Shown: in pieces, positions 6,011-25,655 of the stretch | Numbering within the stretch: the stretch's first letter is position 1 | Layout: each line of letters begins with the position of its first letter | Source of the DNA: an archaeon | GTDB lineage: Archaea > Nanobdellota > Nanobdellia > Pacearchaeales > GW2011-AR1 | Direction: 5' to 3' | NCBI GenBank assembly: GCA_018651605.1 | Contig: JABIDS010000003.1 | Coordinates: forward strand, 26,342 to 90,341 | Length of the DNA: 64,000 nucleotides | Position numbers and translations under genes: made by a program | The notes under the pieces: generated by a model | What the model was told of the DNA's origin: nothing | The model's database searches: none | What the model saw: the letters and a program-made list of their open reading frames with translations, nothing else

Positions 6011-6061
6011 CATTCCCAAAACTCACAAAACTTTTATTAACCTTCAAAACATCTTTCATAT

Positions 6062-6889
6062 ATGAAAAAAAGAGAATCCCCTTCACAAAAAAGATCACAT
6101 GCTAAGCTTCCGAAGGGAGTACTTAGAGGGAGGGTGACTTGTAAGGGAACCGTAGGTTCCATACGATCACAAACAACCATATTCATAATCCTAACAATCC
6201 TAATAATCATCATCATAGCTACACTCTTCATTCTAAAGCCAACCAAACAATCAACACCTCAACAAATTCAACCATTACAATCATCAATACAATCTTGCAT
6301 AGAAGAAATCTCCAAACAAGCAATATTTCACATAAGCGAAAGAGGAGGTTACTACAATCTTCCAGATACAACTCTCGAAAACACAACCCCCTACTATCTT
6401 TACAACGACCAAAACCTCATACCAACTAAAGAAAAAATTCAAAGAGAAATCACACTTTACATACAAGACAACCTACCTAAGTGCATATTCATAGCAACAG
6501 AATTTTCAGATTTCAAAATAACTCAACAACAACCTAGAGCAACAACAGAAATAAAACCAAACAATATTGAAATAAATATAATCTATCCATTATCAATAAC
6601 AAAAGAAGAAAAAACTTACCAACTAGAAAATTTCAAAACAAACATTCCAATAAGACTAGGAACAATCTACAATTCAATTGAACAAATCATACAAGAACAA
6701 ATCAAAGACCCAACAGCACTAGACCCTCACCACATATATCAAGTATCAAATGAAAACAATCTCCAAACAAAAATGCTAGGATTCACTCAAGACTCAGTAA
6801 TATTCATCATCACAGACAAAAAAACAATAAACCAAAACTACACATTTATCTTTGCAAATAAATACATTCCAAAAGAAATTGAAATATAA
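6062..6889 (+). CDS. Class III signal peptide (pilin-like) protein with a palindromic element in its leader
   Basis: IRS|QTTIFIILTILIII; IQSCIE...ERGGYY; ends FANKY like its paralogs. Confidence 0.8.
   Translation: MKKRESPSQKRSHAKLPKGVLRGRVTCKGTVGSIRSQTTIFIILTILIIIIIATLFILKPTKQSTPQQIQPLQSSIQSCIEEISKQAIFHISERGGYYNLPDTTLENTTPYYLYNDQNLIPTKEKIQREITLYIQDNLPKCIFIATEFSDFKITQQQPRATTEIKPNNIEINIIYPLSITKEEKTYQLENFKTNIPIRLGTIYNSIEQIIQEQIKDPTALDPHHIYQVSNENNLQTKMLGFTQDSVIFIITDKKTINQNYTFIFANKYIPKEIEI
6098..6166 (+). repeat. In-frame palindromic element, copy 1 (encodes HAKLPKGVLRGRVTC...)
   Basis: CTTCC-GAA-GGGAG and GGAACC-GTA-GGTTCC hairpins; core GGTGACTTGT...TACGA also at 29421, 51717 and 55181. Confidence 0.8.
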
Positions 6890-8759
6890 AAAACTATCAA
6901 CACTAATTGCATTACTTCTCCTCCTTAGCATAGTTTACGCTCAATCAATTACTCTTTACAACGGAGCCTCTTCAACAGAAATAGACCCAAAAAAACAAAG
7001 CCAAGTAATTTTAAAACAAGGAGAAACAATAACAATAAACAATATAGACTACCCTGCAAAACAAGATTCAAAATTCACATTCAACGAAAAAGGAGAACTA
7101 ACAACAGGAACATCATTCACAACAGAACAAGGAACATACAACATAAAAGGATTTGAAATAGATTTACCAGAAGATTCAACAGTAACTTACCAAGAAGATA
7201 AAATAACAATAAGATTAAAAAAATCATCAAAATTATCAGTCAAAGAAACAAATGAAGCACAATCAGATATCCCAATAGAATTCATCTCAGATGAAGAATT
7301 AGAAGTAGATGGAATAAAAATAAACTCACTCCCAAACCAAGAAACAAAAGTTTACTTTGACACAGAAAAAAAATTATTCTACATAAAAAAAGTAGAAATA
7401 AATGGATTCCAATTTGGAAAATTAACAGGAAAAGACAACACTTATTTATTTTCATCAGAAATTCCAAAAGATTTCAAAGAATCTGCAATAATGATTAAAG
7501 ATAATAAAATAATCTTAAGAGCACCAATAGACAGTTCCAGTACAGATATAACATACACAAAAGATAAAGCAAAGTCAATACTTCAAGCCAGAGCAAAAGG
7601 CGAAATAGAAATAATCATTCAAGATAAAAGATTAGACATAACAACAAAAGGAGACTACAAAATATTTAATGGAAAAATACTAGAGGAAAACGGAGAAATA
7701 GCCCCACTATCAGAATCATTATATAAAATAATAGAACCAACAGAAAAAACAATCCCATTCCATGTAACCTCAATCAAAGAAGATGGAACACCAATGAAAG
7801 GAGAAACATTCTACGACAAAAATGGAAATTTCTTTGTAGGATATAACCAAGGAGACGGAATTTACACAAAATCCGACGGAACAATTCATGTAGAAACAGA
7901 TGAATTAAAAACCTCTTTTGAAAACCTAAACCAAGAACAAAATGAGAAATTCCAAACACTATCAAAATCAGAAAAACTAGAAGTTTTAAGAGGGGTTGCA
8001 GGTGGAGGAAGTTTGGGAAGAGTTTTGGATAGCATAAGCACAATGGGGAATCCAAAATCCATAAGAGAGTTACCAGTAATAAGGAATGTTAATAGGGGAA
8101 ATAAAATTTTAAATGAAATTGCTGCTTATACTCCTGAGGGTTTTTTATATAATGGTGATGCCCATTATTCTACCCATTATCTTCAAAGCGGACTTAGAAA
8201 TGTATATGGTAATGGGGGACGTGATGCAGCAATGTATTTATCTAATGGAGAATTTGTAGTAATGGAGAATCCTCCAGGAATTACATTAAATCAACTTGCA
8301 GATTATATTTATGATAAAGAATTGCAAGGAACAGGAGGTTCAACATATTTAATAGGTAGTCAAAAAGGAATGGGAAAATATGAAGGTTGGAACTCACAAC
8401 CATTATCACATATGTGGGATGAATGGGGAGCTTATGTATATACTGCAAAAAATCAAATAGAAAGAGGTTATGCTGGATCAGATATGGGTCCAGAAAGAAC
8501 AATGAACCTTATGGCATATAATATGGGAATGTTAGATTTAGTAAAATCTTCTCAAGGAGAAAGTCAATATTACCAAGAATTAAGAGATGTAGTCTATTTA
8601 CAAACCTCTAATAGTGCAGAAGTTTACAAAGGGTCTGTCAAGATAGGAATAGACGAGGCAGCAACAACATATCTAAACCAATTAAGAAATAGCCCATGGT
8701 TCAATCAAGCAACAGATGAACATTTTGGTAAAGGTTCATTTAATAATCTTTTTCAATAA
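6879..8759 (+). CDS. Large secreted beta-rich protein with distinct C-terminal domain (degenerate zincin-like HYSTH...DEWGAY)
   Basis: Probable TTG start at 6879 gives a clean signal peptide; DLPEDSTVTY stalk motif; base composition shifts at about 7980. Confidence 0.7.
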   Translation: MKYKKLSTLIALLLLLSIVYAQSITLYNGASSTEIDPKKQSQVILKQGETITINNIDYPAKQDSKFTFNEKGELTTGTSFTTEQGTYNIKGFEIDLPEDSTVTYQEDKITIRLKKSSKLSVKETNEAQSDIPIEFISDEELEVDGIKINSLPNQETKVYFDTEKKLFYIKKVEINGFQFGKLTGKDNTYLFSSEIPKDFKESAIMIKDNKIILRAPIDSSSTDITYTKDKAKSILQARAKGEIEIIIQDKRLDITTKGDYKIFNGKILEENGEIAPLSESLYKIIEPTEKTIPFHVTSIKEDGTPMKGETFYDKNGNFFVGYNQGDGIYTKSDGTIHVETDELKTSFENLNQEQNEKFQTLSKSEKLEVLRGVAGGGSLGRVLDSISTMGNPKSIRELPVIRNVNRGNKILNEIAAYTPEGFLYNGDAHYSTHYLQSGLRNVYGNGGRDAAMYLSNGEFVVMENPPGITLNQLADYIYDKELQGTGGSTYLIGSQKGMGKYEGWNSQPLSHMWDEWGAYVYTAKNQIERGYAGSDMGPERTMNLMAYNMGMLDLVKSSQGESQYYQELRDVVYLQTSNSAEVYKGSVKIGIDEAATTYLNQLRNSPWFNQATDEHFGKGSFNNLFQ

Positions 8760-8804
8760 CTCACAAACCAAAAACCCTATAAAGTCCAATTTCTCTTCTA
8801 AAAA

Positions 8805-9815
8805 ATGAAAAAACAAATAAAAAACCTAGCACAAAAATTAGCCTTAGCTACAACCTTAACACTCTCAACCATAACACAAACCCAAGCTCAAAACCACTTC
8901 CAATCTCCCACCCCAAACCACTTCAAATACCCAACCCAAATTACAGAATCACAAATATTACATCATATGGGACATAGCATGCAACACAATGCACATCACA
9001 CACACAACCCAACACAATATGAAATAGGAAACATACTCCACAACACAGCTCATTTAATAAACATCTACGAAATGCAAAACTCAAAATACCATTTACCTCA
9101 AAGAACAAAACACAAACCAGTAATAAACTTCTTTGTATATGACTCTTGGAAAGACCTTAATCATAATGGTTGGCCAGATAACAGGGCAGAACTTAGAGGA
9201 AGATTAAGAGAAACATTTCATGAAGACGAAAAAATACAAATCGGCACATTAAGTTTTTGGCTAGAAGGAAGCAGAGTAGGCTATAAAATGTTCTGCCCAA
9301 ATGGAGAAGAAATTTATTCAAAAACTCTAAATGTAAATCACGAACATGCTTACGCACCATTAGCAGACTTCAACCAAGGTTTACCAAAAACTCTCAAAAA
9401 ACACGGCCCAGGAATTTATTCAACAAAATTCTTTGTAGACAACAAACACATAGGAACAAGAAACTTCAGACTAATACCTAATCCAGCAAAACAAAGAAAT
9501 TTAGAATCTTCATTACATTCATGTAAACAAAAAACATCAATGTCTCAAAAAGAAAAAGATTATTATGAAAGAGAAAAAGCAATGCATAGGGAAGAAAGTA
9601 AAAAATATCAAACACACCTTTCACCATCACAAAGAAAAACAATACAACAATTCCACAACACAATAAGACAAAGAGCAAATGCAATGAACAAAGCCCATCC
9701 AAGAATAAGAGCAGACCCCTTAGGCTACAACTTCACCGAAGCAGAAATCCTCAAACTTCACAAAACTTATGGAAACTTCTCAGAACAAAACATAAGAAAA
9801 TTCATCAAACCCTAA
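8805..9815 (+). CDS. Secreted hypothetical protein, His/Gln-rich N-terminus
   Basis: Signal peptide ending QTQA; own TATA-like box about 25 nt upstream. Confidence 0.7.
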   Translation: MKKQIKNLAQKLALATTLTLSTITQTQAQNHFQSPTPNHFKYPTQITESQILHHMGHSMQHNAHHTHNPTQYEIGNILHNTAHLINIYEMQNSKYHLPQRTKHKPVINFFVYDSWKDLNHNGWPDNRAELRGRLRETFHEDEKIQIGTLSFWLEGSRVGYKMFCPNGEEIYSKTLNVNHEHAYAPLADFNQGLPKTLKKHGPGIYSTKFFVDNKHIGTRNFRLIPNPAKQRNLESSLHSCKQKTSMSQKEKDYYEREKAMHREESKKYQTHLSPSQRKTIQQFHNTIRQRANAMNKAHPRIRADPLGYNFTEAEILKLHKTYGNFSEQNIRKFIKP

Positions 9816-9847
9816 ACATTTATTAACAATAATTTCTTATTCAACCT

Positions 9848-10612
9848 ATGAAAAAAAGAGTTTACAACAACCTTCTTAATAAGAATTTCACACGAAAAGG
9901 ACAAACAACAATATTCATAATCTTCGCAATACTCCTAATGGCAATACTCCTAATCTTCTTTCTCGCAAAACAAAACATCATAAGTTTAAACCTAACAAAC
10001 CCTCAGATAAAACCCGTCAACTCATTTATCCAATCCTGCATTGACCAAACAGCAGAAAACGCAATCCAACACATCGGAGAAAACGGAGGATACTTCACAA
10101 GCCCAAATAATTCCCTAGACAATGCAATTCCAATATACTTTAACAAAGGACAAACACAAGTCCCAACAAAAGAACAAATAGAATCAGAACTCTCTGAATA
10201 TATAAACACAATGTTATTCTTCTGCACAAAAAACTTCGCAGATTTTCAAGACTTTAAAATCACACAAAAAGAAATAAAAACAACAACACAAATTCAAAAA
10301 GGAGAAATCATATTCAACATAAATTATCCCTTATCATTAACAAAAGAAGAAAAAACTTATCAATTAGAAAACTTCAACACAGAAATTCCATCAAGACTTC
10401 TCACAGTCCAAGAAGCAGCATCCAAAATAATCCAAGACCAAAAAGAATTTCCAGAAGAACTTTGCATAACTTGCATAGAAGAAACAACAATAGAAAAACA
10501 ATTAATCGTAAACATGAGAGACTATCAAGACTCAATAATTTTCTCAATAACAGATTACAATCAACAAATAAATCAAAAAGAATTCATATTCTATTTCGCA
10601 AACAAATATTAA
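9848..10612 (+). CDS. Class III signal peptide (pilin-like) protein
   Basis: RKG|QTTIFIIFAILL; YPLSLTKEEKTYQLENF nearly identical to the 6062 paralog; CITC; ends FANKY. Confidence 0.85.
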   Translation: MKKRVYNNLLNKNFTRKGQTTIFIIFAILLMAILLIFFLAKQNIISLNLTNPQIKPVNSFIQSCIDQTAENAIQHIGENGGYFTSPNNSLDNAIPIYFNKGQTQVPTKEQIESELSEYINTMLFFCTKNFADFQDFKITQKEIKTTTQIQKGEIIFNINYPLSLTKEEKTYQLENFNTEIPSRLLTVQEAASKIIQDQKEFPEELCITCIEETTIEKQLIVNMRDYQDSIIFSITDYNQQINQKEFIFYFANKY

Positions 10613-10613
10613 A

Positions 10614-12578
10614 ATGAAAACAAAAACAATCTCACTAATTTTTTTACTTTCAATCTTCCTAATTTTATCAACAATTATAATTAACGCAGAATTTTATGAA
10701 AGATATCCTGAAGGCACAACACCTCCAACAACTACAGAAGCTTTTGAAGAAGACATAAATGAAGAACAATCAATAACAGAAAAATTAAACCTACAAGGAG
10801 AAAACAAAGCAACAGCAACCAACATTAAAATCCAAAGAGACTCAACAACTAACAACTTAAACAAAATAACTTTCACAGGAGAAGGAAATTCAATAACATT
10901 AGAAACAAAAGGAAAAGACAATACTTACAAACATACCTATTCAAATCTAAAACCCGTAGGAGACAAACCACCAGAACTTTACATAGATGAAAATGGAAAA
11001 ATCCAAGAAGCATCTTTCACATTATCAGAAAAACAAACCATTGTTCTAGGAAACGAAATATTAAAAGACCTTCCAAAAGGAACTCAGGTGGAATATAAAG
11101 ACGGAATAGCAACAATAACTTATCCAAAAAATTCAGAGATAAATTTGCCAAAAGAAACAATAGATAAAGAGCCAGGAGAATCAACATTTTATTTCCAATA
11201 CAAAGATAGCAATGAATTCACATTACCAAATGGAGATAAAATTTACACAACACAATTAGGTTCTAAAAACAGAAAATTATTTTTTGATTCAACTGAAGCA
11301 AGAATAGGAGACGACATAGAAATAAAAAACCCAAATAAAGTTAAAACATATTTAGATTTTGAAGGCAAACCAAATTTAGATCTTCCAGAAGCTTACATCT
11401 CAATAAACAGAAAAGAAAAAGCAATGACAGTAGGAATGAACACAAAAGGAGAAGGCCCATCATTTTTAATAAAATCAGAAAGCGATTTTGCACCAGACTT
11501 AAATGGAGAAAAAGATCACCTAGCAATACAACCCTACAACCAAGAAGGAGAAAAATCATACTTGTATATAAAAAATAGACAAACATCAAATAAAATTACA
11601 AGAGCAGTTTCTTTAAACGGAATAAGATTAAACACCAACGGAGTTTCCCCATACTTTGATGTTGAAAAAGGAAAATTTTTAGTAAACCTAAAAGGTAACC
11701 TTGTTGAAGGATTCCAAGGCTCTGAAGGTTACATACCTCTTCAATTAGAATCCTATAAATCAAAAGATAATGATTACAACAATTTAGTAAAAGTCCTAAA
11801 AAACGACAACTTAATGATTGTAGATAATAACGGAAGAGTCGGATTCGGCCCAGACCCTGACTTCATTTCAGTTAAGGCAGCAACATATTCAAAAAAATAT
11901 GGAGAAAAAGGATTATACAAAGGAGTCTCACAATGGCTATCTTATAATGCCCCTCCAACTATTGAAACATTTGAAAGATTCACAGGAATAGATATAAACG
12001 ACAGAGTAGGGATTCCACCAGAAAGAATAAGAATGTTAATGGATGTATTTGCAAGTGTTCCAAGAGGCGCATTAAAAAGTGTAAAAACTTTAAATATTGC
12101 AAATCATTGGGCAGGATGGGCAGGATTAGCAAGACCTACTGAAGTAAATTTACATTGGAGCAATGGAGGAGTTGACCCTGGAACTGCAATACACGAAATA
12201 GCCCATGTCCACGACATGAGAGTAGGTTGGGATTGGGGAAGAAGCAGATTTGAAAGACAATGGAATTCAGTAGGAGGTAGCAACGGACCTCACACTTATG
12301 ACTATGGATACACTAGCCGTGAAGACACATCAACATTTGCACAAATGATTTACAAAGACTACTGGAGTTCAGGAAGCGACAGATACACCTTTGGCTCATG
12401 GAAACAAGGACTAAGTCAAGACTATGCTTATCACAAAAAAATAAGAGCAAAACTAGCAGTATTTTACTGGAACGGATTTATAACAAAAGACCAAACAAAA
12501 AGAGTCTTCAATCAAGCAGGACTAGAATCAGACGACGATTCACTACTTAGATATTATAATGAGGCAAGAAACACTTAA
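10614..12578 (+). CDS. Large secreted protein with C-terminal putative zinc metallopeptidase
   Basis: Signal peptide; DLPKGTQVEY stalk motif; AIHEIAHVHD (HExxH) with downstream YGYTSRED acidic ligand candidate. Confidence 0.75.
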   Translation: MKTKTISLIFLLSIFLILSTIIINAEFYERYPEGTTPPTTTEAFEEDINEEQSITEKLNLQGENKATATNIKIQRDSTTNNLNKITFTGEGNSITLETKGKDNTYKHTYSNLKPVGDKPPELYIDENGKIQEASFTLSEKQTIVLGNEILKDLPKGTQVEYKDGIATITYPKNSEINLPKETIDKEPGESTFYFQYKDSNEFTLPNGDKIYTTQLGSKNRKLFFDSTEARIGDDIEIKNPNKVKTYLDFEGKPNLDLPEAYISINRKEKAMTVGMNTKGEGPSFLIKSESDFAPDLNGEKDHLAIQPYNQEGEKSYLYIKNRQTSNKITRAVSLNGIRLNTNGVSPYFDVEKGKFLVNLKGNLVEGFQGSEGYIPLQLESYKSKDNDYNNLVKVLKNDNLMIVDNNGRVGFGPDPDFISVKAATYSKKYGEKGLYKGVSQWLSYNAPPTIETFERFTGIDINDRVGIPPERIRMLMDVFASVPRGALKSVKTLNIANHWAGWAGLARPTEVNLHWSNGGVDPGTAIHEIAHVHDMRVGWDWGRSRFERQWNSVGGSNGPHTYDYGYTSREDTSTFAQMIYKDYWSSGSDRYTFGSWKQGLSQDYAYHKKIRAKLAVFYWNGFITKDQTKRVFNQAGLESDDDSLLRYYNEARNT

Positions 12579-12579
12579 A

Positions 12580-13188
12580 ATGAAAAACCAAAACATAATA
12601 ACAATAATTCTAACAATCCTATTAGCAATTACCTCAATCACCGCAACCCCTCTTTACTACAACATCCACCTACAATCACAAAATCAAGAGATAACAATAA
12701 TCTCAATAGACATAGAATTCAATCAACAAAATCCTGAAAATTTCTACAACCCTATAATAAACACACAAATTTTAGAACTTCAAGATTTCAACAACAAACA
12801 ATTACTAAAAACAAACTTCACAATCCCAAATATAGAAATCTCTGACAACTTAAACAACAAAACAAATCAATTCATATCAGGAGATACAACAACCCTAAAC
12901 CAAACAACATTCAACATCTACATCCCCTACAATAAAGACGCAAAACAACTAAAAATCTACAACCAAAACAACCAAGAATTAACAACAACCTCTCTAGCAC
13001 ATTTCTCAACAAATCCTCAAGCAAAAAACCATATAGATAAAACAATCCCAACACAACAAGAAACAACAGAAACCCAAACAAAAACAAAAACACAACAACC
13101 CAAACAAAACTACATCTGGATAATTCTATTAATAATCCTAATTATTTTAATAATAATCCTTCTAATCACAATCAGAAAAAAGAAGTAA
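12580..13188 (+). CDS. Secreted protein with C-terminal membrane anchor
   Basis: ATG at 12580 coupled to upstream TAA; signal peptide; Thr/Gln linker, TM helix, RKKK tail. Confidence 0.75.
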   Translation: MKNQNIITIILTILLAITSITATPLYYNIHLQSQNQEITIISIDIEFNQQNPENFYNPIINTQILELQDFNNKQLLKTNFTIPNIEISDNLNNKTNQFISGDTTTLNQTTFNIYIPYNKDAKQLKIYNQNNQELTTTSLAHFSTNPQAKNHIDKTIPTQQETTETQTKTKTQQPKQNYIWIILLIILIILIIILLITIRKKK

Positions 13189-13240
13189 CCAAAGGTATAC
13201 CAAGGTTTATAAACCCAAAAATCTCACAGATATTGAGAAA

Positions 13241-13756
13241 ATGACAATATTTAACACATTATCAAAGGCAACAACAACAGGATTAGTAGCACTTGTATTA
13301 GGTACTCAACCTTCTCAAGCTATAGAACCACAAGCACAATCAACATATACACAAGCCCAATATGAATCAGATTTAGTATATATCCAAGATCAACTAGATT
13401 CTAAAAAAACAAAACAAAAAACAATTCCAAAATCAGAATTAATGTACACTCAAAAAGAATTTGAAAAAGCATTTAAAAAACCAAGAACCAATTCAACCCT
13501 TTTAAGAAAAGCAGAACTAATGCATAAAAACCCTAAACAAACTTTCAACTATCTTTCCAAAGAACAACAAAAAAAAGTCACAAGATTCTGCACATCATTA
13601 CAAACTTCAAAAGATAAAGGGCCTTTTGATGATATAATAAAACACGACCATAAAACAACATACCCATTCATAAATATCAAAAAACCAACAATAGCAGACG
13701 CACTAATAATGTATTTGCATGAAGAACACTTAAGCAAACAAAAACCTCTTAATTAA
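13241..13756 (+). CDS. Small secreted hypothetical protein
   Basis: Signal peptide ending PSQA; TTTATAAA box upstream. Confidence 0.65.
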   Translation: MTIFNTLSKATTTGLVALVLGTQPSQAIEPQAQSTYTQAQYESDLVYIQDQLDSKKTKQKTIPKSELMYTQKEFEKAFKKPRTNSTLLRKAELMHKNPKQTFNYLSKEQQKKVTRFCTSLQTSKDKGPFDDIIKHDHKTTYPFINIKKPTIADALIMYLHEEHLSKQKPLN

Positions 13757-15567: not shown

Positions 15568-16362
15568 ATGAAAAAAAGAGAAACCAAATTAAATTCTAAA
15601 AAAGCCCAAATTACAGTATTCATAATAATTGCATTAATCATCGTAGCTGTAGCAATAGCAACAATCTATTTCACAAAAATTCGTTCACAAGATACAATCA
15701 CAGACGAATACTTCTTACAAGAATCAATAAAACCCAAACTAGACAACATGCAATCAGCTATACTAAACTGCCTAGACCAAACATCATTAGACGCACTAAC
15801 AGTAATAGGAATACAAGGAGGATATTACAACGAACCCTCAAAATCTTTTGACCTAGGATGGGCATTCATGCCTTACTATTATAACCAAGGAACATTCGCA
15901 AAACCAACAACATCAGAAATAGAAACAGAACTCGGAGATTACATCAACGACAACTTAAAATTCTGCCTAGAAGAAATAGATCAAACAGACTTCACACTAA
16001 CACAAAAAACATCAAAAACAGAAGCATCAATAAAACCCGGAGAAGTAGAATTTGAAATCAACTCCCCAATAACAATAGAAAAAGAATCACACACCTTACA
16101 ATTCCAAACAAAAAAACACCCAACCACTAAACAATCATTACTTTACGAAATCTTAGAAGTTGCAGATTATATAACAGAATCACACAGAGATGACCCTGAA
16201 ATGATTTGTATAAGTTGCGTCGCTGACATGGCAGAAGAACGAGAACTCTATGTAGACATGCTAGACTTTGACGACGAAACAACAACCCTAATAGTAATTT
16301 CAGAAAACAAAACACAAGAAGAAGCTTATGTTTTTGAGTTTTTGAATAAATATTCTGTTTAA
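15568..16362 (+). CDS. Class III signal peptide (pilin-like) protein
   Basis: KKA|QITVFIIIALII; IQGGYY; CISCVADMAEE; ends FLNKY. Confidence 0.85.
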   Translation: MKKRETKLNSKKAQITVFIIIALIIVAVAIATIYFTKIRSQDTITDEYFLQESIKPKLDNMQSAILNCLDQTSLDALTVIGIQGGYYNEPSKSFDLGWAFMPYYYNQGTFAKPTTSEIETELGDYINDNLKFCLEEIDQTDFTLTQKTSKTEASIKPGEVEFEINSPITIEKESHTLQFQTKKHPTTKQSLLYEILEVADYITESHRDDPEMICISCVADMAEERELYVDMLDFDDETTTLIVISENKTQEEAYVFEFLNKYSV

Positions 16363-16367
16363 ATTTT

Positions 16368-16832
16368 TTATCTTCTAAAAAATAATCTTTTTCTAGAAAG
16401 AGAGTAAGTCCCTTGTTTTTGTTGAGATTCTTTTTTTAATTGAGGATTTTCAACAGGAAGTGGTAAAGGCAACTTCGAGTTATTTTTAGGAGATTCTCCA
16501 GTATATTGTTTTTCAAATTCTTTTGGATAATTATCTGCAATATTACTTAAAGATTTATAACCCTTAGTATTTACCTTAGGAACAAACAATTTAAAAAGAA
16601 CCCCAAAAAGCCCTCCAGAGTTAGTCAAACTTTTTTCTCTAATATGAGTTACAGAAGGATAATTTTTTAACTGAATATCTGAATCTAAAGGATTTTTAGA
16701 AAAGGATTTTGGAGGAGTATAAACTTGATTATCTTTTTGTTCAGCAGAATAAACAGAGCCAATTTCTCCAAAAGGCAAATATAAACTTGCTACAATAAAA
16801 CTAGTGCAAGATATTTTTTTCAAACTATTCAT
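16368..16832 (-). CDS. Small secreted hypothetical protein with RKRLFFRR tail
   Basis: Open frame between two pilin-like paralogs; hydrophobic N-terminus. Confidence 0.6.
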   Translation of the reverse strand: MNSLKKISCTSFIVASLYLPFGEIGSVYSAEQKDNQVYTPPKSFSKNPLDSDIQLKNYPSVTHIREKSLTNSGGLFGVLFKLFVPKVNTKGYKSLSNIADNYPKEFEKQYTGESPKNNSKLPLPLPVENPQLKKESQQKQGTYSLSRKRLFFRR

Positions 16833-16936
16833 TTTATCTTATATTTCAAAAGACTTTAGACCTTATAACTTTTATGATGCTGAAAAACAAACAATTCTTA
16901 AGTTATATTTAAATACCTAAGATTCTAATACTAATC

Positions 16937-17761
16937 ATGAAAAGAGGACAAGTAGCAATATTCATCATCTTAGCACTAGTAGTCATCGGAGCAACAGCAG
17001 GAATAATCTATGTAAAAACTTCAGACAAAACAAGCAAACAAGACAGAGAATTCTTCGCATCCTTAGAAAATAAACCTTCACTAAACAGCATACAATCTTC
17101 AATAATAGATTGCTCAGAAGAAACCTCAAAACAAGCACTAGACACTATAGCAATCCAAGGAGGATACTACACCAAACCAGAAAACTCATTAGAACTAAGC
17201 ACAAGCTTCATCCCATACTATTACAACCAAGGAACAATCACACAACCATCAAAAACAAAAATAGAATCAGAACTATCTTCTTACATAAATGAAAACCTAA
17301 AAGAATGCATAAATCAAATAAACATCAACGACTTCAAAATAAACCAAAAATCTCCAGAAACAACAACAACAATTAACAAAGAAAACATTCAATTCACAAT
17401 AGACTCTCCAATAACAATAGAAAAACAAGACCATAAAATAATCTATGAACTAGAAGACAGCCCAGTAACAATTAACTCAGAATTAAACTCAATAATAGAA
17501 CTTGCAGAATATATCACACAATCACACAACCAAGATCCTGCAATGTATTGCATAAGTTGCGTCGCTGACATGGCAGAAGAAAACGACCTATACCTAGACC
17601 TAATTCCAATGGCAGACCAGACAAGCCTATTAATAATCTCAGAAAACCACACATCTTCAGAACCCTACTCATTCGCATTCCTAAATAAATATACAGGAGA
17701 TGAAAAATCACCAGATTTCACAGCAGGAAATCAAGGCAACATCCCACCAAAAGAAATATAA
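16937..17761 (+). CDS. Class III signal peptide (pilin-like) protein, close paralog of 15568
   Basis: MKRG|QVAIFIIL; near-identical DNA TG(T/C)ATAAGTTGCGTCGCTGACATGGCAGAAGAA at about 16208 and 17549. Confidence 0.85.
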   Translation: MKRGQVAIFIILALVVIGATAGIIYVKTSDKTSKQDREFFASLENKPSLNSIQSSIIDCSEETSKQALDTIAIQGGYYTKPENSLELSTSFIPYYYNQGTITQPSKTKIESELSSYINENLKECINQININDFKINQKSPETTTTINKENIQFTIDSPITIEKQDHKIIYELEDSPVTINSELNSIIELAEYITQSHNQDPAMYCISCVADMAEENDLYLDLIPMADQTSLLIISENHTSSEPYSFAFLNKYTGDEKSPDFTAGNQGNIPPKEI

Positions 17762-17762
17762 A

Positions 17763-19394
17763 ATGAAAACAAAAAATATATTCCTAATAACAGCATTAAT
17801 ATTACTCCTAGCAGGAAGTTTGGGGTTGGTGGTTGGGGCGCAAATTCCAGATTATGATCAATGGAAAAATGACATACAAAATGGTTTGGATAAATATATT
17901 AATGGAGAAGATTCTTCTCAATATCTAAACAGCAAATGGGAAAGCGCAGATAATTCAGAAAATCATCAAAAAAGTCTTTTAAACAATTTAAATACAGAAC
18001 AAACAAAAGCATTATGGGATAATTTAGAAAAAGAAAATAGGCAAACAATGTTTGATAACTTAGGATTACCTGAAAAAGTGGAACTTTGGGATGCGCATTG
18101 GGAAAATAATTTTAATACCTTAGAAGGAGATATATTCTCAAAAACCCAAAAGAACCGACAAGATTTATTAGACTCCCTAAAACCTTCACAAAAAGATACA
18201 ATGCTTAGTCTTATCGCTCAAAATAACAATCCCAGTCTTCAGGGAGAAGGTAAAGTAGATTTATCTCAAGGCATAACTGAAGACGCAAAAATAGAATATA
18301 AAATAGACGCAAATGGAGAAGAAAGTGTAGTCCTAACAGATAGCGAAGGAAAAAAACTCTCAGTTCAACTTTCAAACCTCCCAGAAACTTTAACTAATCT
18401 TAAAATAGAACTCGGATTAGGTAGTGGAGAGCTAAGTGTAATAGCAACAGATACTAATAAAAATAAAGTTGTTTTAAGAAACGGACATTCAATTAAAAAA
18501 ATACCAACAGAGAATCCAAACACAAATCAATGGCAAATAGTAGATGAAAATGGAAATCCTGCATTCATTGCTGATTTTGGTGATGCAACAGATGCTCAAT
18601 TTTTAGCAGGAAGTCCTGGAACTCACGACGGAATTCAATATCCAGACGCTTACCATATATGGGCAGAAGGACATGGAGGAGAAGGAAAGGGCGCTGAAAT
18701 GATAATAGAAAATCAGGATGGAACCGAAGTTAGAGTTTTCCCAGCCATAGGAGAGGATTATGCTTTCGCTAAAAAATTAGGAACACCAGAACAAAGAGTT
18801 TATAATGTTCAAGGAAACCTCATGACATCAGAGGGATTTAGTGCATATTCTGAAGGAAATGAAAATACTTTTAATTTTGGGACTACATATGGTTTGGAAT
18901 TAGATCTTACTGATAGCAAATATCAGGATATAATACATATTTTTCATTCAACAAATAATGAGGAAGGGGAAACAACTTGGACAATAACTCCAGGAAACAA
19001 TGTTGAAGATAGAGTATCATTTGCAGTAGTTGGTTCACTTGTAAATCAAGATAAATTCCAAGAAACAACTATAGGAGAAAATGAGGACTCATACACTTCT
19101 TACACATTCAAAGATAATCAGGATTATGTTCCAAGACAAAGAAGTGAATCCACTACTAAATCTTCAGCTGGAACAACAAGAGTAAGATCAAAAGATATAC
19201 CCTTAGATCTGGAAGAAGCTCTTAAGCAGATTATTCCAAACACTCCTGAAGAAACTACACAACCTCCAACAACTACTGTAGAAATAAACCCCCCTAATAC
19301 TTGTGGTCCAGATGAAAATTGTGGAGAAAGAAGAACATATACTCGAGGAAGATTATTTAGGAGGAGCAGTTGTGGTCCTGGTGGTTGCAATTAA
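17763..19394 (+). CDS. Large secreted protein of the variable-tip family
   Basis: Coupled ATG at 17763; signal peptide; VQLSNLPETL motif; tail RGRLFRRSSCGPGGCN. Confidence 0.75.
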   Translation: MKTKNIFLITALILLLAGSLGLVVGAQIPDYDQWKNDIQNGLDKYINGEDSSQYLNSKWESADNSENHQKSLLNNLNTEQTKALWDNLEKENRQTMFDNLGLPEKVELWDAHWENNFNTLEGDIFSKTQKNRQDLLDSLKPSQKDTMLSLIAQNNNPSLQGEGKVDLSQGITEDAKIEYKIDANGEESVVLTDSEGKKLSVQLSNLPETLTNLKIELGLGSGELSVIATDTNKNKVVLRNGHSIKKIPTENPNTNQWQIVDENGNPAFIADFGDATDAQFLAGSPGTHDGIQYPDAYHIWAEGHGGEGKGAEMIIENQDGTEVRVFPAIGEDYAFAKKLGTPEQRVYNVQGNLMTSEGFSAYSEGNENTFNFGTTYGLELDLTDSKYQDIIHIFHSTNNEEGETTWTITPGNNVEDRVSFAVVGSLVNQDKFQETTIGENEDSYTSYTFKDNQDYVPRQRSESTTKSSAGTTRVRSKDIPLDLEEALKQIIPNTPEETTQPPTTTVEINPPNTCGPDENCGERRTYTRGRLFRRSSCGPGGCN

Positions 19395-19495
19395 ACTATT
19401 CTCAAACCCTTCAACCACTACCAAACCCACCATTCTCCAACCCTCAAACCCCAAACCAACCCAATATTTATATACTACTTTTCCCAAATAATAAT

Positions 19496-22400
19496 ATGAA
19501 AAAAGGTGTAGAAAAAAAACCAATCCAAAAAGGAAATCTATTAAATATATTTTACATAATTAGTTTTATTTTAATCTTAACATCTTTAATTTTTGCACAA
19601 ACAACTAATCCTTGTGATAATCTAACTGGAGCAGAAAAAGCATATTGCGAACAAGGACAGAAATTCAAGGAAACATTTGAACAAGGAAAAATACCTAGTG
19701 AATCTCTACAAGAAACAATGATAGATAATTTTGATGATTTTTATAAGGGGTTTAAAACAAATCCAGAAAATTTTGAAACATTGTTTGAAAATTTTTATTC
19801 AACACATGCCGAAGGAGATTTACAAGGAGAACATTTAATAGTAGAAGATTTAAGAAATAAATTTTTACAAAAATTTCTTGAAGAAGGAGATAATGAAAAC
19901 ATTAAAAAATTAATTCAAGCAGGAGGGGATAATTATCGGAAAAAGAATCCTAGTTTTTTTGGAGATTCAACAGAATCAAGAATAAAGTATGTAGATATTC
20001 AAGGAAAAAATATTAAATTTGTTGGTAATAAACTTGCAAGAGTTGATGAAGAAGGAAATCCTATTTCATGGATTGATTTTGATAATATGCCTAGATGGAC
20101 AGATTCAGTTTCATATTATGAAGGAGAAAGAGAAGTTACTATCGGAGGAAAAAAAGAAATAGTTAATGACGCTTTTTTCATTCGTATAGATACCGGAAGT
20201 GCCCTCAAAACATTAATCGCTGAAAAGGGAAGCTTTGGAAATATTGCAGAAGCAATTGCTCCTGATGGAAGAACAATTGGATTAGATTTAGGAAGAGATA
20301 TCCAAAGCATTACACTTGAAGCAGGAGTGAGCCCTGCCGACGCAAAAGTTTCAATAAAATGGAAAGATTTAGATGGCAAACTCCATGAAGAAAAATTAGG
20401 AAAAGCCCAAATAGGAGAAGAATCATTCGCCTTTTTAGAAGGATTAAGTGGAAATGCAAAAGACGTTATCCAAGAAATGATGTCAGATTTAGATGGCATC
20501 GGACCAAAGATGGGAGAGGATTTAAACGAAGCTCTTGGAACAAATACAGGCAACAGAATTAGTTTCTCTTATGGAGGGGATTATGATAGCGAAGAAACAA
20601 TAATAATGGACTTTGATGAACAGGGAGATATGATAATTAAAGGAAGCGAAGGAGCTACAATCATTTCAACAGACTCTGCAGGAAATGTTAATGCTGAATT
20701 TAACCCTCTAAAAGAAGGACAAACAGGACACTCAGAAGGACCAGGACAATTTATCTTTGATAAATATGGAGATGTTAAAAAATACTCAAATGCAGAGATT
20801 AGCATCTATGAAGCAAATCAACACACTGCATCTCTTAGGACAAAAGGAAATGAATTAGAAGATGTAACAATAATCAGAAACACTTTTGTTGATGCAGTAA
20901 TGCGGGGAGATTATAACAGGTTAGTTAGGGAAGTAGGTTATGATGTTGAAGATTTAATTGATGAGTCTATGTCAAATTATCTCCCAAGTGAAATTAAAGC
21001 AAGGATTGCAGAAAAAATAAAAAAATATCTCGACGACCCAAACCTAGGTCCTGAAATGAAAAAAGCCCTAATTAAAAGCTATGATTCTGTTCTATCAACA
21101 TTACAAGAACAAAGCTCATCCATCGCAAATGATTTTTTAACAAGATATTCCAACACCAATCAAGAAGTTATAGAAGACCTTAAAAGACATTTTGTAAATC
21201 AAATGACAGATAAGGCTCAAAGTATAGGAAGAGAAGTTATCGGAGAAATTTTACAAGACCCTCAACAAGTTAGAGATATCTTAGAAGGAGATTCTTCAAT
21301 TTTAACAAGAATTCAAAAAGACATTAATGCAGGAGATTACGTTGAAGGAGTTGTAGGTTCAGATATTTATCAAGAAATTAAAAACACCTTAGAAGAATTC
21401 CAAAGAGCTGGGATAATTGATAGCACAGGTTCTATTAGCACCACCACTACTGCAAGAAATACTGCAATAAGCCAAATAACAGATAGTTTAGTCCAAGATA
21501 TCTCAGGAAATTATCAAACCATTACTACTTCAAGTAGTGCAAGTATAAGTCAAGGAGATATAGATATAGATTCTCTTTTTAGTGAATATTTAGTAGGTGC
21601 TAACGCACCATTAGAAGTTGCATTTGCAGGATACTTAGAACAGGTTCAAAAAGGAGATGTTAGCTTTCAAGTTTTAGATAAGAACGGAAATCCATTAACA
21701 TCAAAAGAAACAGCTAAGAGGGCAATGGGAATTTTCGAAGATGCCCAGAAATATATCACAGAACAGAAGAACGAATTTAAAGAAAAATTAATTGCAGATT
21801 TCGCTAAAAACAAAAGAACAGGACAAGTTTTAGATGTTCAAGCAAAAGAGTTTTATGTAAATGGTGGAAACGGAGGAATTTTTAATGCAAATACTGGTTT
21901 CAGAAAAATAAGTGTGAATAATCAAGACAAAGATAGTTTCCAGATTTTTAGTAATGGAGAAGAAGTTGCAAGAGTCCAAGGAAAAAATACTTATTTTTCT
22001 AGAATTGTAGACAGTCATCAATATGTCCCAATAGAAGAAATAGTCAATGAAAATTCAGGACACCAATTAAAGTTAGCTTCATCTTCAGATCCTTTAACTA
22101 GGGGAGATTATAGTATTTATGATGTGAATAGATTAGCCACAAAAACTGCGCGTATTCAAGCTTATGTTAGGGAAGATGACGGATTTTTAGGAAGAAGGTG
22201 GGGAAGAGGGCTCGGACCTAGGGGAGCTTGGCAACATCCAATTGTTGGAACAACCATAACTGCTCCAGAAGGCTCAGATATTGGTGCAGATCCAAATTCA
22301 AAAATAGAAATTTATGATTTAACAGATCAAATGTCAGGTATTTTGGGAGGAAGAATAAAAGGAATGGTTAGGGATATGATTGTTCCAGTAGGATGGCCAA

Positions 22401-22954
22401 TGGGACTTGCTGCAGGTTTCGCCCTTCCAGGAGCTGAATCAAGAACAGGAGGCAATGATCAACTTAAAAGTAATATTAATGATTTCCTTCAAACCATGAG
22501 AGATAACAACCTAGATATTCCCCCACAAATGCAAGACATAGCTTCAGTTATACAAAACCCAGAAGCCATGACTACTATTTTAAGATTTGTTTCAGATGAA
22601 TCAACATTAAAGGGAGGAAATAGCGTTACAATAACTCCAGGATATTTAGCAGTCAATGGAAAACAAGTAAACACATTTACAACTTCAAATGGTCAGCAAG
22701 AAGATTTAGGTCCGGCACTTAGAACATTTATGAGATCTTATAAAAAAATGACAGACAGTCCAGCATTAGATCCATTTAGATCTTATGGAGGTCTAAAGAG
22801 TCTTAGAAATATAGCTCAACAAGCACAATATGTATCTCAAAAAGCTCAACAACAAGGCATAGCAAGTTTAACAGACTCTGAAGTAGCAACCTTAAGAAAT
22901 ATGTATATGGGATTCCAGAGAGTAAGCACAAGATCCACATATCGTTATAATTAA
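19496..22954 (+). CDS. Very large secreted protein (about 1150 aa) of the variable-tip family
   Basis: TATA box at about 19467, ATG at 19496; signal peptide; WIDFDNMPRWTDSVSY motif. Confidence 0.75.
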   Translation: MKKGVEKKPIQKGNLLNIFYIISFILILTSLIFAQTTNPCDNLTGAEKAYCEQGQKFKETFEQGKIPSESLQETMIDNFDDFYKGFKTNPENFETLFENFYSTHAEGDLQGEHLIVEDLRNKFLQKFLEEGDNENIKKLIQAGGDNYRKKNPSFFGDSTESRIKYVDIQGKNIKFVGNKLARVDEEGNPISWIDFDNMPRWTDSVSYYEGEREVTIGGKKEIVNDAFFIRIDTGSALKTLIAEKGSFGNIAEAIAPDGRTIGLDLGRDIQSITLEAGVSPADAKVSIKWKDLDGKLHEEKLGKAQIGEESFAFLEGLSGNAKDVIQEMMSDLDGIGPKMGEDLNEALGTNTGNRISFSYGGDYDSEETIIMDFDEQGDMIIKGSEGATIISTDSAGNVNAEFNPLKEGQTGHSEGPGQFIFDKYGDVKKYSNAEISIYEANQHTASLRTKGNELEDVTIIRNTFVDAVMRGDYNRLVREVGYDVEDLIDESMSNYLPSEIKARIAEKIKKYLDDPNLGPEMKKALIKSYDSVLSTLQEQSSSIANDFLTRYSNTNQEVIEDLKRHFVNQMTDKAQSIGREVIGEILQDPQQVRDILEGDSSILTRIQKDINAGDYVEGVVGSDIYQEIKNTLEEFQRAGIIDSTGSISTTTTARNTAISQITDSLVQDISGNYQTITTSSSASISQGDIDIDSLFSEYLVGANAPLEVAFAGYLEQVQKGDVSFQVLDKNGNPLTSKETAKRAMGIFEDAQKYITEQKNEFKEKLIADFAKNKRTGQVLDVQAKEFYVNGGNGGIFNANTGFRKISVNNQDKDSFQIFSNGEEVARVQGKNTYFSRIVDSHQYVPIEEIVNENSGHQLKLASSSDPLTRGDYSIYDVNRLATKTARIQAYVREDDGFLGRRWGRGLGPRGAWQHPIVGTTITAPEGSDIGADPNSKIEIYDLTDQMSGILGGRIKGMVRDMIVPVGWPMGLAAGFALPGAESRTGGNDQLKSNINDFLQTMRDNNLDIPPQMQDIASVIQNPEAMTTILRFVSDESTLKGGNSVTITPGYLAVNGKQVNTFTTSNGQQEDLGPALRTFMRSYKKMTDSPALDPFRSYGGLKSLRNIAQQAQYVSQKAQQQGIASLTDSEVATLRNMYMGFQRVSTRSTYRYN

Positions 22955-22955
22955 A

Positions 22956-25655
22956 ATGAAAACAACAAAAACAACAAAAACAACCGTCCTTTTAATCTTA
23001 GTCTTAACTTTAACTCTCGCACTCATCTCAGCCCCAACACCTCAAGAACTAGAAGATTATCTCAGCGGAAGCCAGCAAGAAATTAAAGAAAAAGTAGAAG
23101 AGTTCACAGAATTATCTGGAGGAGATAGAAATGCTATTTGGGAAAAAAGTGGTGAAGAATATAGCATAGAGAAAGATGTAATGATGAAAGAATATTTAAA
23201 ATTAATAAACGAAAAAAAGAACCAAGCACTTAGGAGCGGAAATTTAGCAAGTTTTTTTGGAGGAACACTTGCAAATGTATTAATCAGAGAAGGAAAAAAG
23301 AATGACATAGGAGGCTTAAGAATAACCTTAGCCAGCGAAGAATTAAAAGGCTCACAAATTGATATAGATATTGATTTTGAAAAGTTTAAAAAGGATTTAG
23401 ACGGAAATTTAAAAAAATTAGGAATAGACCCTCAAGGTTCTTTATTAGAGGGGGATATAAAAATCAGAGGATTTGGAAATCCTAAATTAAAATGGTCAGA
23501 AGAACAAGGAAAAGAAAATGTAATTGGAGATGGAAAAGTATGGGTAGATATGTCTAACTTACCAGTTGGAACTTCAAAAATAGAATATGACGGAAGCAAA
23601 TTCACATTAACATTAAGAGGAGGAGGAAAAGTAGTATTAGAACCAGGAGCAACAAACAAAGACGGAGGATTAGCATTAGAAGGTTTTGATGTTGATAATC
23701 TAAGAGACATTGTTTTTACAGCAGGAACAAATGGAGAAATTAGCATTAATGCAGAAGGTATAAAATTAAAAGGAGATGCAGAAGTTCATTACAATGGTTT
23801 AGTATTAACTAAAAACCCAAAAGAAGCAGAAGGTTTTGTTAGAGCTACAAAAGACGGATTTTATCTCAAAGGAGTTAAAGCAAAAGTAATAAATCCTGCA
23901 GGGGAAGGATTTATAGGAATGATCGCAGGAAAAAACGAAAAATTATTAAGAATTGCAAATGGACAAGCATTAACCTTAAGGGATTTAGTAAGTATGAAAG
24001 ATGGGATTTTAGCTAATGCCAACAGTCCAGTTGTAGAAGTAATTCATTTTGATGATGCTGAGAAAAAAGTGAGCAGAGATAGAGTATTTGCAGGAAGTGT
24101 AAGTACAGCTCCGAGTTTTAGGCAACTTATTACAACAAGAGAATCTTTAGGAGACATTTATTTCAGCTTCAACGAACAAACAGGAGAAGTCGTAGCAGTT
24201 AAAAAAGAAGGAGCATGGGTTAGAATAGGAGATTCTATGACAGAAGATTTACAAAAAATTTACACAGCTTCCAGTGATACTGTTCAACAAATAATTACAG
24301 ATTCATTAAATCCTGAAACAACAGTAGATTATACTTACATAAGGAGTGCACGTAATAAAGACTTCTGGTTAAGAAGGGGTAAAACAGTTCATGTAGATGC
24401 GAAAGTTTTAGATGGAGTTTCTATGAGCATTGATGATGGAAAAATTACTCATGTTAGAAAAATAGGAGTCAACAACGGAGCATGGCTCAAATTTTCTGAA
24501 ACTAGTGACATGAGCGAAATCTATGGAACTTCAACCCAAAGGGTCGGAGATTATCTAAGAACTAGCAAAGATGAAACTATTAATCCTGACCTTGAAAAAT
24601 ATATCGCAAACACAGTCCCTCCAAACACTCCCGACTTCATGATAATTGCAGGAGATAACGTCTTAATGGGCGGAGATGTTGAAGTAAATATCCAACAAGA
24701 TTTAGGAAGTTTAAATTTCTACAATTTAGATGATGATGCAAAAGTAAATGTCAACGGCCTTAAATTAAGCGCCAATGAACAAGGAAAGTTAGAATACCAA
24801 AGAGCTCCAGTCAAAACAAACGAATTCAATGTAGATTATGTTAGTATAACAAACCAAAGAAGCGACGGAAGTTGGATAACAAGCTCAGATACTTATGAAA
24901 TCCTAGATCAAAGAGGAGATGCAGGAAATACTCCAATTATAGATTCAGACAGATTTGTCGCGGGCAGAGAAGTCTTCACAGGCCCATTAGGAGTTACAAT
25001 TGATGCTTATGTTTCCATGAGTCAGGAAAGCGTAGAAAGAACTGGTGCAAACAAAATACAAGAGGGTGGAGATATTAGAGATATTCTAGAAAATGAAGGC
25101 TATGAAGTTAGATTAGATACAAAACTTCCAGTTAGTGGCGTAAGTGTTACAGTTAGAGACAGTGATAAACTTTTAGATGAAGTTATATTGCCTAGATTAG
25201 ATGATTGGATTTTAGGACTTGGGGGCAATCTTTTTGAAGGTGAAGGAGAATTGGCAGAATGGCTTATTGGAGATAGGCAAATTAAATTACAAACATCACA
25301 AAATATTAACAATTTAGTTAGAAGTTCTGTAGTGGGCAAATATAATGGGGGAGAGTTAGGTATAGGGTTTAGGCATGTCCCAAATAAAAATCCTCAAATT
25401 ATAGTTTATGAAAATGGAAAAATAATTAACACCGTAAATTTACAAGGGCAAAATGCAAAATTGGTAAAAGATATACTTTGGGGAGTTAGAATTGTTCCTT
25501 ATGTAAATAACGACGTACGTAAGATATGGGGACAAAATATTGGAAATAAAGTTAATATAAATAATGGACTAGGACGTTGGGAAACATGGAAATGGGGAGG
25601 AGTAGCAAATTTAGGAAACACTAAATTAAACAAATATTCAGAATTAGTTAAATAA
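22956..25655 (+). CDS. Large secreted protein of the variable-tip family
   Basis: Coupled start; signal peptide; KLKW...WVDMSNLPVGTSKIEY motif. Confidence 0.75.
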   Translation: MKTTKTTKTTVLLILVLTLTLALISAPTPQELEDYLSGSQQEIKEKVEEFTELSGGDRNAIWEKSGEEYSIEKDVMMKEYLKLINEKKNQALRSGNLASFFGGTLANVLIREGKKNDIGGLRITLASEELKGSQIDIDIDFEKFKKDLDGNLKKLGIDPQGSLLEGDIKIRGFGNPKLKWSEEQGKENVIGDGKVWVDMSNLPVGTSKIEYDGSKFTLTLRGGGKVVLEPGATNKDGGLALEGFDVDNLRDIVFTAGTNGEISINAEGIKLKGDAEVHYNGLVLTKNPKEAEGFVRATKDGFYLKGVKAKVINPAGEGFIGMIAGKNEKLLRIANGQALTLRDLVSMKDGILANANSPVVEVIHFDDAEKKVSRDRVFAGSVSTAPSFRQLITTRESLGDIYFSFNEQTGEVVAVKKEGAWVRIGDSMTEDLQKIYTASSDTVQQIITDSLNPETTVDYTYIRSARNKDFWLRRGKTVHVDAKVLDGVSMSIDDGKITHVRKIGVNNGAWLKFSETSDMSEIYGTSTQRVGDYLRTSKDETINPDLEKYIANTVPPNTPDFMIIAGDNVLMGGDVEVNIQQDLGSLNFYNLDDDAKVNVNGLKLSANEQGKLEYQRAPVKTNEFNVDYVSITNQRSDGSWITSSDTYEILDQRGDAGNTPIIDSDRFVAGREVFTGPLGVTIDAYVSMSQESVERTGANKIQEGGDIRDILENEGYEVRLDTKLPVSGVSVTVRDSDKLLDEVILPRLDDWILGLGGNLFEGEGELAEWLIGDRQIKLQTSQNINNLVRSSVVGKYNGGELGIGFRHVPNKNPQIIVYENGKIINTVNLQGQNAKLVKDILWGVRIVPYVNNDVRKIWGQNIGNKVNINNGLGRWETWKWGGVANLGNTKLNKYSELVK

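Follow-up and report, generated by a model that had tools for sequence, protein, structure and literature searches.

A widespread class III-signal protein family encoded with large secreted proteins in candidate surface-display cassettes of Nanobdellota archaea

Proteins with a prepilin signal that are encoded beside, and work with, a large non-pilin surface protein have been described in bacteria; the minor pilins that go with the PilY1/PilC tip adhesin and the GspK-GspI-GspJ tip of type II secretion are examples. The modular type IV pilins PilB and PilC of Streptococcus sanguinis represent a further arrangement, in which a pilin module itself bears a functional module, an adhesin for instance. 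Archaeal class III-signal substrate-binding proteins (the bindosome) and the 'functionalised type 4 filaments' proposed in PMC13705601 likewise have non-pilin ectodomains behind a class III signal, a new task for the type IV machinery, and that paper reports that most DPANN genomes encode pilins of the Epd-like 'system 1', with two platform genes and scattered pilins. The DPANN archaea of the group treated here are uncultured, and how they hold and feed on their hosts is an open question. We describe a gene array in a 64,000-nucleotide stretch of DNA (the window; positions 26342-90341 of contig C12, GenBank JABIDS010000003.1) from an archaeal genome of the order Pacearchaeales (assembly GCA_018651605.1, designated G000; 1.0 Mb in 24 contigs, about 33% G+C). 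The array is built from proteins of about 255-275 residues with a class III signal, designated A, and large Sec-signal proteins, designated B, in two-gene cassettes that probably equip the cell surface for dealing with host cells.

Set against bacterial minor pilins, A is far larger and has a fold of its own, it occurs in 11 copies with different partners, and its genes lie outside the machinery operon; no PilY1-like Pfam domain (beta-propeller or vWA) was found in any B. The pilin module with its functional module in S. sanguinis PilB and PilC resembles the A-fused forms of 1020-2618 residues described below, but the modules of the window are separate coupled genes, their payloads are stalks with enzyme heads, and the organism is an archaeon. 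So far as the accessible text of PMC13705601 describes the bindosome, the difference is that the A ectodomain belongs to an uncharacterised family paired with a separate secreted enzyme, and is not a solute-binding protein; that part of the source does not mention the A family. A literature search found no paper on it, and it may figure among DPANN pilin families in the supplementary material of PMC13705601 (S4, S5, S10 Fig). What emerges is a concrete module: a widespread A family, coupled within the sampled order to large secreted proteins, some of which have protease heads.

All five A proteins of the window carry the signal [KR][KR][A/G/S]-Q-x-T-x-F-I-I, with predicted cleavage before the Gln. 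Across 59 aligned members, the residue at -1 is Ala, Gly or Ser and that at +1 is Gln in every sequence (59/59 each), Lys or Arg stands at -2 in 51, and Phe at +5 in 58. Leaders range from 4 to 36 residues, and the hydrophobic stretch that follows the signal runs for about 20 residues or more, positions +4 to +22 being hydrophobic. A therefore has what defines a class III signal: a short basic leader, a small residue and then about 20 hydrophobic residues. Gln at +1 is a hallmark of substrates of the methanococcal peptidase EppA. A first-pass annotation, drawn from the letters of the window, had listed repeated class III-signal proteins at 6062, 9848, 15568 and 16937. These are indeed paralogues (blastp E 1e-23 to 9e-84, 30-46% identity), and a fifth copy, beyond the range considered there, lies at 1070-1885 on the plus strand (271 residues; blastp E 5e-13 to 7e-9 to the other copies; family hidden Markov model (HMM) E 5.6e-46).

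Searches by tblastn and by profile found 11 A copies in the genome: six on C12, five of them in the window; three on C13, which make up a second array; a solitary copy without a partner on C23; and one on C20. By sum of coordinates, A genes and their partners occupy about 48 kb of the genome. The family is present in all 31 genomes sampled as relatives, which come from the genus and from further families of its order; across the phylum it occurs in 191 of 201 sampled genomes, with 1 to 17 matches per genome, related genomes being non-independent samples. The A copy on C20 is a fused form of 624 residues with its A domain N-terminal, followed after a 4-nucleotide (nt) overlap by the gene for a 1904-residue secreted protein (C20:32950-40535, minus strand); neither protein contains a Pfam domain. 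Fused forms with open frames of about 620-740 residues recur across the phylum, and may represent the ancestral version. The database holds 163 relatives of A, and among the 120 listed none has a Pfam domain or a functional name; the Atlas clusters nearest to A are unnamed Nanobdellota proteins, and public labels on relatives of the window's proteins read Pacearchaeota, Nanoarchaeota or Nanobdellota. A is an uncharacterised class III-signal family.

The A gene and its coupled neighbour form the unit of the array. Within the window, four of the five A copies are followed by a B gene at a gap of 1 nt or with an overlap. B10614 begins 1 nt past the stop codon of A9848 (9848-10612, plus strand; 254 residues, with a pilin-like class III signal), and B6879 overlaps A6062 (6062-6889, plus strand; 275 residues, of which 36 form the leader) by 11 nt. 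A16937 heads a four-gene unit on the plus strand (16937-25655), composed of A16937 (16937-17761), B17763 (17763-19394), B19496 (19496-22954) and B22956 (22956-25655), with gaps of 1, 101 and 1 nt. Coupled B genes start mostly in the context 'ttaaaATGAAA'. The repeated A-then-B unit of the first-pass annotation is thus real in its coupling and wrong as a rule of one A per B, since A16937 heads a four-gene unit and A15568 (15568-16362, plus strand; 264 residues) has no partner downstream. Large proteins do lie at all six places proposed; B6879, however, starts with TTG rather than ATG (626 residues from TTG 6879, or 635 from TTG 6852, ending at 8759 on the plus strand), and B13753 (13753-15480, 575 residues with a Sec signal) is on the minus strand, divergent from A15568 across an 87-nt spacer.

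Each A gene was also said to have a TATA box of its own, and a TATA-like AAAnnTTTAWWWA box does stand about 34-22 nt upstream of the ATG of every one (about 6028-6041 for A6062, about 9814-9827 for A9848). At that distance leaderless transcripts are implied. The same box precedes B13753, B19496, s8805, s13241 and q27250, and was not found upstream of the coupled B genes.

The pairing extends beyond the window. Twelve loci, picked because they hold A genes, were fetched from relatives; G001, G003, G004, G008, G012 and G016 are relatives of the same order, and L numbers denote relatives' loci. Together with the source genome these give 44 A genes, and for 32 of them the next same-strand open reading frame (ORF) has at least 400 residues and a hydrophobic N-terminus, at a gap of -77 to +60 nt. 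The remaining 12 comprise about six near misses, two A genes with small genes next to them and a larger ORF of the Cys-rich type further downstream, and four without a same-strand partner. Among the near misses are a non-ATG start (A6062/B6879), a partner missed by the hydrophobicity pattern, a partner of 389 residues, a tandem of two A genes, and two partners at gaps of 310-361 nt, perhaps through mis-called starts. Whole units are kept as well. Homologues of the A16937 unit occur in the same order in G012 (L020 5950-15607), where a homologue of s26014 also follows, and in part in G003 (L016); the three-gene unit A9848-B10614-s12580 is kept in G001 and G012, with the s12580 homologue behind the B10614-like gene.

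A1070 heads a conserved 'core' cassette of a different kind. Its partners are a Cys-rich secreted protein (1887-3710, 607 residues) and a surface or membrane protein (3707-5773, 688 residues), both on the plus strand, which are 54-63% identical to the proteins at the same positions behind an A gene in four relatives of the same genus, G001, G004, G008 and G016. This cassette exists as a tandem duplicate, at window 1-5773 and C12:23087-27370; in the upstream copy the Cys-rich and surface proteins form a single ORF of 1160 residues (C12:23888-27370), which is split into 607 and 688 residues in the second. In five relatives of the same genus a conserved gene, PCNA as read by eye, is found no more than about 2.5 kb from a core-type cassette.

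A quick maximum-likelihood tree of A contains three clades that follow partner type: one with Cys-rich 'core' partners (the 'cce' clade, to which A1070 belongs), one with the G1 stalk, and a third with G3, G4, G5 and unclassified partners. Mapping the partner N-terminal type on the tree requires 15 label changes, where shuffled labels require 28.3 on average and none of 200 shuffles comes as low, with the proviso that related sequences share labels.

The B proteins are not one family. The first-pass annotation had proposed a common stalk motif, and our comparison, made with signal peptides removed, bears it out only in part. B6879, B10614 and C13_B669 share a stalk domain of about 90 residues (HMM E 2e-18 to 1e-29; E 2.3e-18 over residues 61-142 of the G1-type stalk of B6879, E 1.1e-29 for B10614), and B6879 also matches C13_B669 by blastp (E 1e-9). 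The groups of B13753, B19496 and B22956 share a different N-terminal region (G2/G3/G5 type in B13753), the one bearing the proposed motif (hhalign 82-94%; for B13753, 90% with the B22956 group, 94% with that of B19496). Between the two sets hhalign gives 5% or less, and their only link is one blastp pair at E 5e-4 in a database of 19 sequences. B17763 stands apart, at 2% or less to either set, its one resemblance being to C13_B729 (blastp E 1e-9). As hhalign controls, four unrelated secreted proteins gave 0.3% or less. An iterated stalk HMM built from the genome's own copies did not grow, a deeper one drifted to the B10614 subfamily and lost B22956, and the seed stalk HMM did not recover B13753 even at E 1.

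Exchange of modules is mosaic. In the 12 relatives' loci, matches cover only the N-terminal part of B6879, B13753 (residues 9-349), B17763 and B22956 (against L016), only the C-terminal part of C13_B707 and C13_B729, and nearly the whole length of B10614, B19496 and C13_B669. The idea of a fixed stalk with unrelated C-termini holds in part: heads do differ, but exchange runs both ways, and in some relatives it is the C-terminal part that is retained and the N-terminal part that differs. Variable partners are 22-30% identical to their homologues in the same genus, against the 54-63% of the A1070 core partners. Scans of all window A, B and small proteins against Pfam and NCBIfam gave nothing above cut-off. 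PDB sequence searches with B6879, B22956, B13753, B19496 and B17763 returned nothing better than E 0.09; B6879 has no Pfam, NCBIfam or PDB match, and its C-terminal 280 residues or so match nothing. By eye, none of the six large window proteins shows a C-terminal hydrophobic segment or sorting signal.

On a common stalk, the heads differ: zincin, trypsin-like, thioredoxin and CAP ends are all found. C13_B669 joins a B10614-type stalk to a trypsin-like end (E 9.3e-8), C13_B729 has a thioredoxin end (E 7e-13), and a scan of 70 stalk-sharing representatives gave Trypsin_2 in ten, Peptidase_Mx1 (PF15890) in three, and CAP and thioredoxin in one each.

The best-defined head is that of B10614, for which a search of 1.84 billion proteins gave 282 cluster representatives at E 0.001 or better. 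Its AlphaFold model, the single B structure computed, has a predicted local distance difference test (pLDDT) of 92.0. After the signal peptide, residues 44-440 form short beta strands almost throughout, a stalk (residues 1-440 with the signal; 11933 is its last nucleotide, from 10614, plus strand) for which no convincing match among solved folds was found; the C-terminal domain follows at about residues 441-654 (11934-12578). All 53 aligned full-length members keep H527, E528, H531 and E570, E570 being the putative third zinc ligand by sequence. In structural comparisons with VIA-align the head scores Z 9.3 to the catalytic domain of anthrax lethal factor (156 aligned residues, root mean square deviation 3.6), Z 8.3-8.9 to PPEP-1 and PPEP-3 (144-154 aligned), Z 5.1-5.8 to other zincins and Z 4.1 or less to unrelated entries. 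Over the HExxH region a PDB profile search finds 4l7a_A (E 2.7e-5); Pfam gives no match to B10614 itself. Both the HExxH...E motif and, on the model, an M34-like catalytic-domain fold thus mark the head as zincin-like. With the M34 zincins PPEP-1/Zmp1, PPEP-2, PPEP-3 and anthrax lethal factor it shares HExxH, the downstream Glu and Z 8.3-9.3 over 144-159 residues. Unlike them it is archaeal and sits on a beta stalk of 400 residues, and at 10-16% identity the likeness is one of fold and motif only.

Some evidence bears on a physical link between A and B. For A9848 (residues 41-254) with B10614 (residues 26-654), the predicted complex has an ipSAE of 0.50 (median of three runs), all three controls giving 0.00; contacts agree in at least 90% and partner pLDDT is at least 82, and the tool's verdict is 'weak support'. 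The pilin-partner interface that the first-pass annotation anticipated is thus predicted for this pair, weakly. In the tool's calibration, 58 out of 80 solved complexes pass its mark, as do 2 out of 110 mismatched pairs, and passes at 0.60 or under include only 7 of those 80, along with both of the passing mismatches. Proteins from elsewhere in the phylum, 1020, 1035 and 2618 residues long, start with a class III signal and an A domain. A giant surface protein can thus have an A module as its N-terminal portion. The C-terminal extensions of these giants match no B group and no Pfam family.

Machinery able to process and assemble class III proteins would be at hand. The first-pass annotation saw no ATPase or prepilin peptidase in the window, correctly, and both occur elsewhere in the genome: a Peptidase_A24 gene above the Pfam cut-off at C1:3213-3548, and ATPases of type IV pilus type at two loci (C23:86.5-90 kb and C12:103.5-108.3 kb), where the T2SSF platform domain is matched twice apiece. 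The arrangement agrees with the Epd-like 'system 1' as far as the accessible text of PMC13705601 sets it out. A candidate major pilin lies at C23:84903-85343. Class III-like or pilin-like genes adjoin both arrays (window 27250-30047 and C13:14241-14783), which counts in favour of a link to pili.

Our preferred reading, which we hold tentatively and at something close to an even chance, makes A a pilin-like module for anchoring or assembly, by which the cognate partner, exported separately, is kept on the surface. The locus would then be an array of surface-display cassettes, each transcribed from its own archaeal promoter. The A24 prepilin peptidase of the genome would cut the short basic leader of A before the invariant Gln, so that the hydrophobic helix now at the N-terminus would stay in the membrane, or else in a type IV filament or pseudopilus, with the conserved two-lobed alpha/beta domain outside the cell. 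A pilus tip, a short pseudopilus or simply the membrane could each be the site of display. The coupled B genes would yield large Sec-exported proteins with no anchor of their own, each with a variable head after an N-terminal part that is extended and either beta-rich or helical. By binding the N-terminal part of its cognate B, A would keep B on the cell surface, and the displayed repertoire of enzymes and binders could be used by a host-dependent DPANN archaeon on the envelopes or proteins of its host. If A does anchor or load its partners, the idea of the 'functionalised' type IV filament extends from nutrient-binding proteins to displayed enzymes, and the cassettes supply candidate host-interaction proteins across a large part of archaeal dark matter. 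A broader version is possible, though we consider it rather unlikely: a DPANN-wide arming of type IV filaments, not described before, in which a dedicated pilin-like adaptor docks separately exported stalk-and-enzyme proteins, with protease, redox or unassigned heads, non-covalently on a filament or pseudopilus, and expansion and reshuffling of cassettes produce lineage-specific toolkits for gripping or digesting host envelopes.

Several observations weigh against an anchoring role for a pilin-like A. The model of A15568, the one A structure computed (pLDDT 90.4, predicted template modelling score 0.80), has a membrane helix at residues 10-48, a break, a second helix at 55-82 and two alpha/beta lobes, with C68, G84, G85, P90, P113 and C133 invariant in the family; the two helices are separated, unlike the single long helix of pilins. 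Foldseek found nothing for it in the PDB at E 0.001 or better. In a wide VIA-align search the best match was a gp25-like tail lysozyme at Z 6.5, and pilins and pseudopilins made up 7 of 50 rows at Z 4.2-4.8, both within the tool's stated noise; GspK and several minor pilins are among these weak matches, as is PDB 7b7p (PilB, Z 4.8). Judged by the model, then, a pilin fold is not clear. Nor did Pfam or NCBIfam place A in a pilin family, returning at E 0.1 or better only chance-level rows under the cut-offs. A comparison by eye of the coordinates listed for 31 genomes showed no A gene adjoining a pilus ATPase. All ten of the sampled genomes that lack A keep T2SSE ATPases, and there is therefore no co-occurrence signal. 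A15568 and the C23 copy are partnerless. The match between A clades and B types could arise from tandem duplication of whole cassettes alone. Finally, the predicted complex is weak, and by the tool's own calibration such passes are 'more often wrong than right unless the guess was likely beforehand'.

In the closest competitor the A proteins would be minor pilins with which a type IV filament is primed or capped; each would carry its B partner at the tip, so that the cell could present alternative tips. Bacterial minor pilins with PilY1 and the modular pilins of S. sanguinis are parallels, and the class III signal, the pilus machinery of the genome, the A-B pairing and the weak predicted interface fit it, all being equally at home with display by a surface anchor. 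A repeat in the A6062 leader, which recurs in the leaders or 5' regions of class III-like genes flanking the C12 pilus ATPase locus (at 102.9 kb and 109 kb), speaks for it too. Yet nothing places A in a filament, the pilin fold is not clear and no linkage to ATPase genes shows in the coordinates of the 31 genomes compared, and the near-universal single-copy fused form and the 'core' cassettes look like fixed parts of the envelope rather than exchangeable tips; we regard this version as unlikely. The coupling of one A with an exported protein, the agreement of A clades with B N-terminal types, the missing anchor on B and the hydrolase heads, able to act at a distance, would suit instead a membrane-anchored private helper for the export, folding or release of a B that then leaves the cell. 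Such a helper might act as a steric chaperone, in the manner of the lipase foldase Lif, or belong as a pseudopilin to a secretion device driving B across the surface layer. Covalently A-fused giants suit an anchor better than a transient helper, one A serves three unrelated large proteins at 16937-25655, and no similarity to known foldases or pseudopilins was found, so that we give the helper only a small chance.

Duplication is enough to explain why A clades match B types, and the support for a complex is weak; A and B might then be co-transcribed surface proteins with no physical link, the array having grown by tandem duplication and fast divergence under pressure from the host. The rapid divergence of B relative to the core partners is in keeping with this. 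The pairing nevertheless persists across the sampled order with unrelated B types, fusions exist, and the three complex controls all gave 0.00, which makes mere co-transcription improbable in our view. Variable heads on a common stalk, small orphan genes after several cassettes and mosaic exchange of modules also recall polymorphic toxin systems, where B would be delivery stalks with exchangeable toxic heads and the small neighbours immunity proteins. The heads, however, are enzymes of extracellular type (zincin, trypsin-like, thioredoxin, CAP), not nucleases, deaminases or pore formers, and the small proteins are themselves exported or membrane-anchored, with only s12580 conserved alongside its cassette. 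Because no toxin-type head was found, we rate this as very unlikely indeed.

Small secreted orphans after the cassettes had also been reported, and they are present at 8805, 12580, 13241, 16368 and 26014, the second starting at 12580 and not at 12559. The His-rich secreted protein s8805 (8805-9815, plus strand; 336 residues) is matched only weakly, in one relative. In the A9848 cassette the third gene is s12580 (12580-13188, plus strand), which encodes 202 residues from its second ATG; the product has a signal at the N-terminus and a membrane anchor at the C-terminus, and the start context 'ttaaaATGAAAA' is the same as that of other coupled genes. It is followed by s13241 (13241-13756, plus strand; 171 residues, secreted). 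A small signal-bearing orphan of 154 residues, s16368 (16368-16832, minus strand), is convergent with A15568, and s26014 (26014-27171, minus strand; 385 residues) is lipoprotein-like, with an LAGC lipobox. Lipoprotein-like genes of this kind recur near cassettes on either strand, here at 26014-27171 and in relatives at L020 and L022. Lipoboxes and signal-peptide cleavage sites were read by eye throughout.

Beyond the array, a candidate minor-pilin operon at 27250-30047 (plus strand, q27250 first) consists of four tightly packed genes for proteins of 224, 311, 176 and 217 residues whose N-termini look class III-like by eye; a family search with them gave zero matches. The leader of its last gene (about 29410-29520) contains the repeat element found in the A6062 leader (about 6087-6166, where some 70 nt are repeated). 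Further copies lie at C12:~102925-103030, C12:109047-109220 and C5:10040-10141. The element is about 70-105 nt long, richer in G+C and forms two hairpins, and between copies one stem differs by a compensatory change of U-A to C-G. Three class III-like genes have it in frame within the leader, its end falling exactly at the cleavage site, and two other copies end at an ATG. A long conserved leader peptide, a 5' regulatory RNA and a small mobile element are all candidate identities; no Rfam family matched it at gathering score, and a scan of the whole window at that score gave only one tRNA. Contigs from the four public DNA runs, all of one study, are identical, but too short and of too low depth for strain variation to be read from them, and no RNA run is among the public runs listed as containing the sequence.

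Near the left edge of the window, a 12-nt tandem repeat at 3547-3711 gives the Cys-rich protein a C-terminal (T-E-T-T)n tract, a possible linker region. Elsewhere in the genome, a third ATPase of the T2SSE family at C11:41197-41775 (open frame of 769 residues) is distinct from the two pilus-type enzymes (about 510-545 residues), and counterparts with open frames of about 690-790 residues occur in most of 30 relatives.

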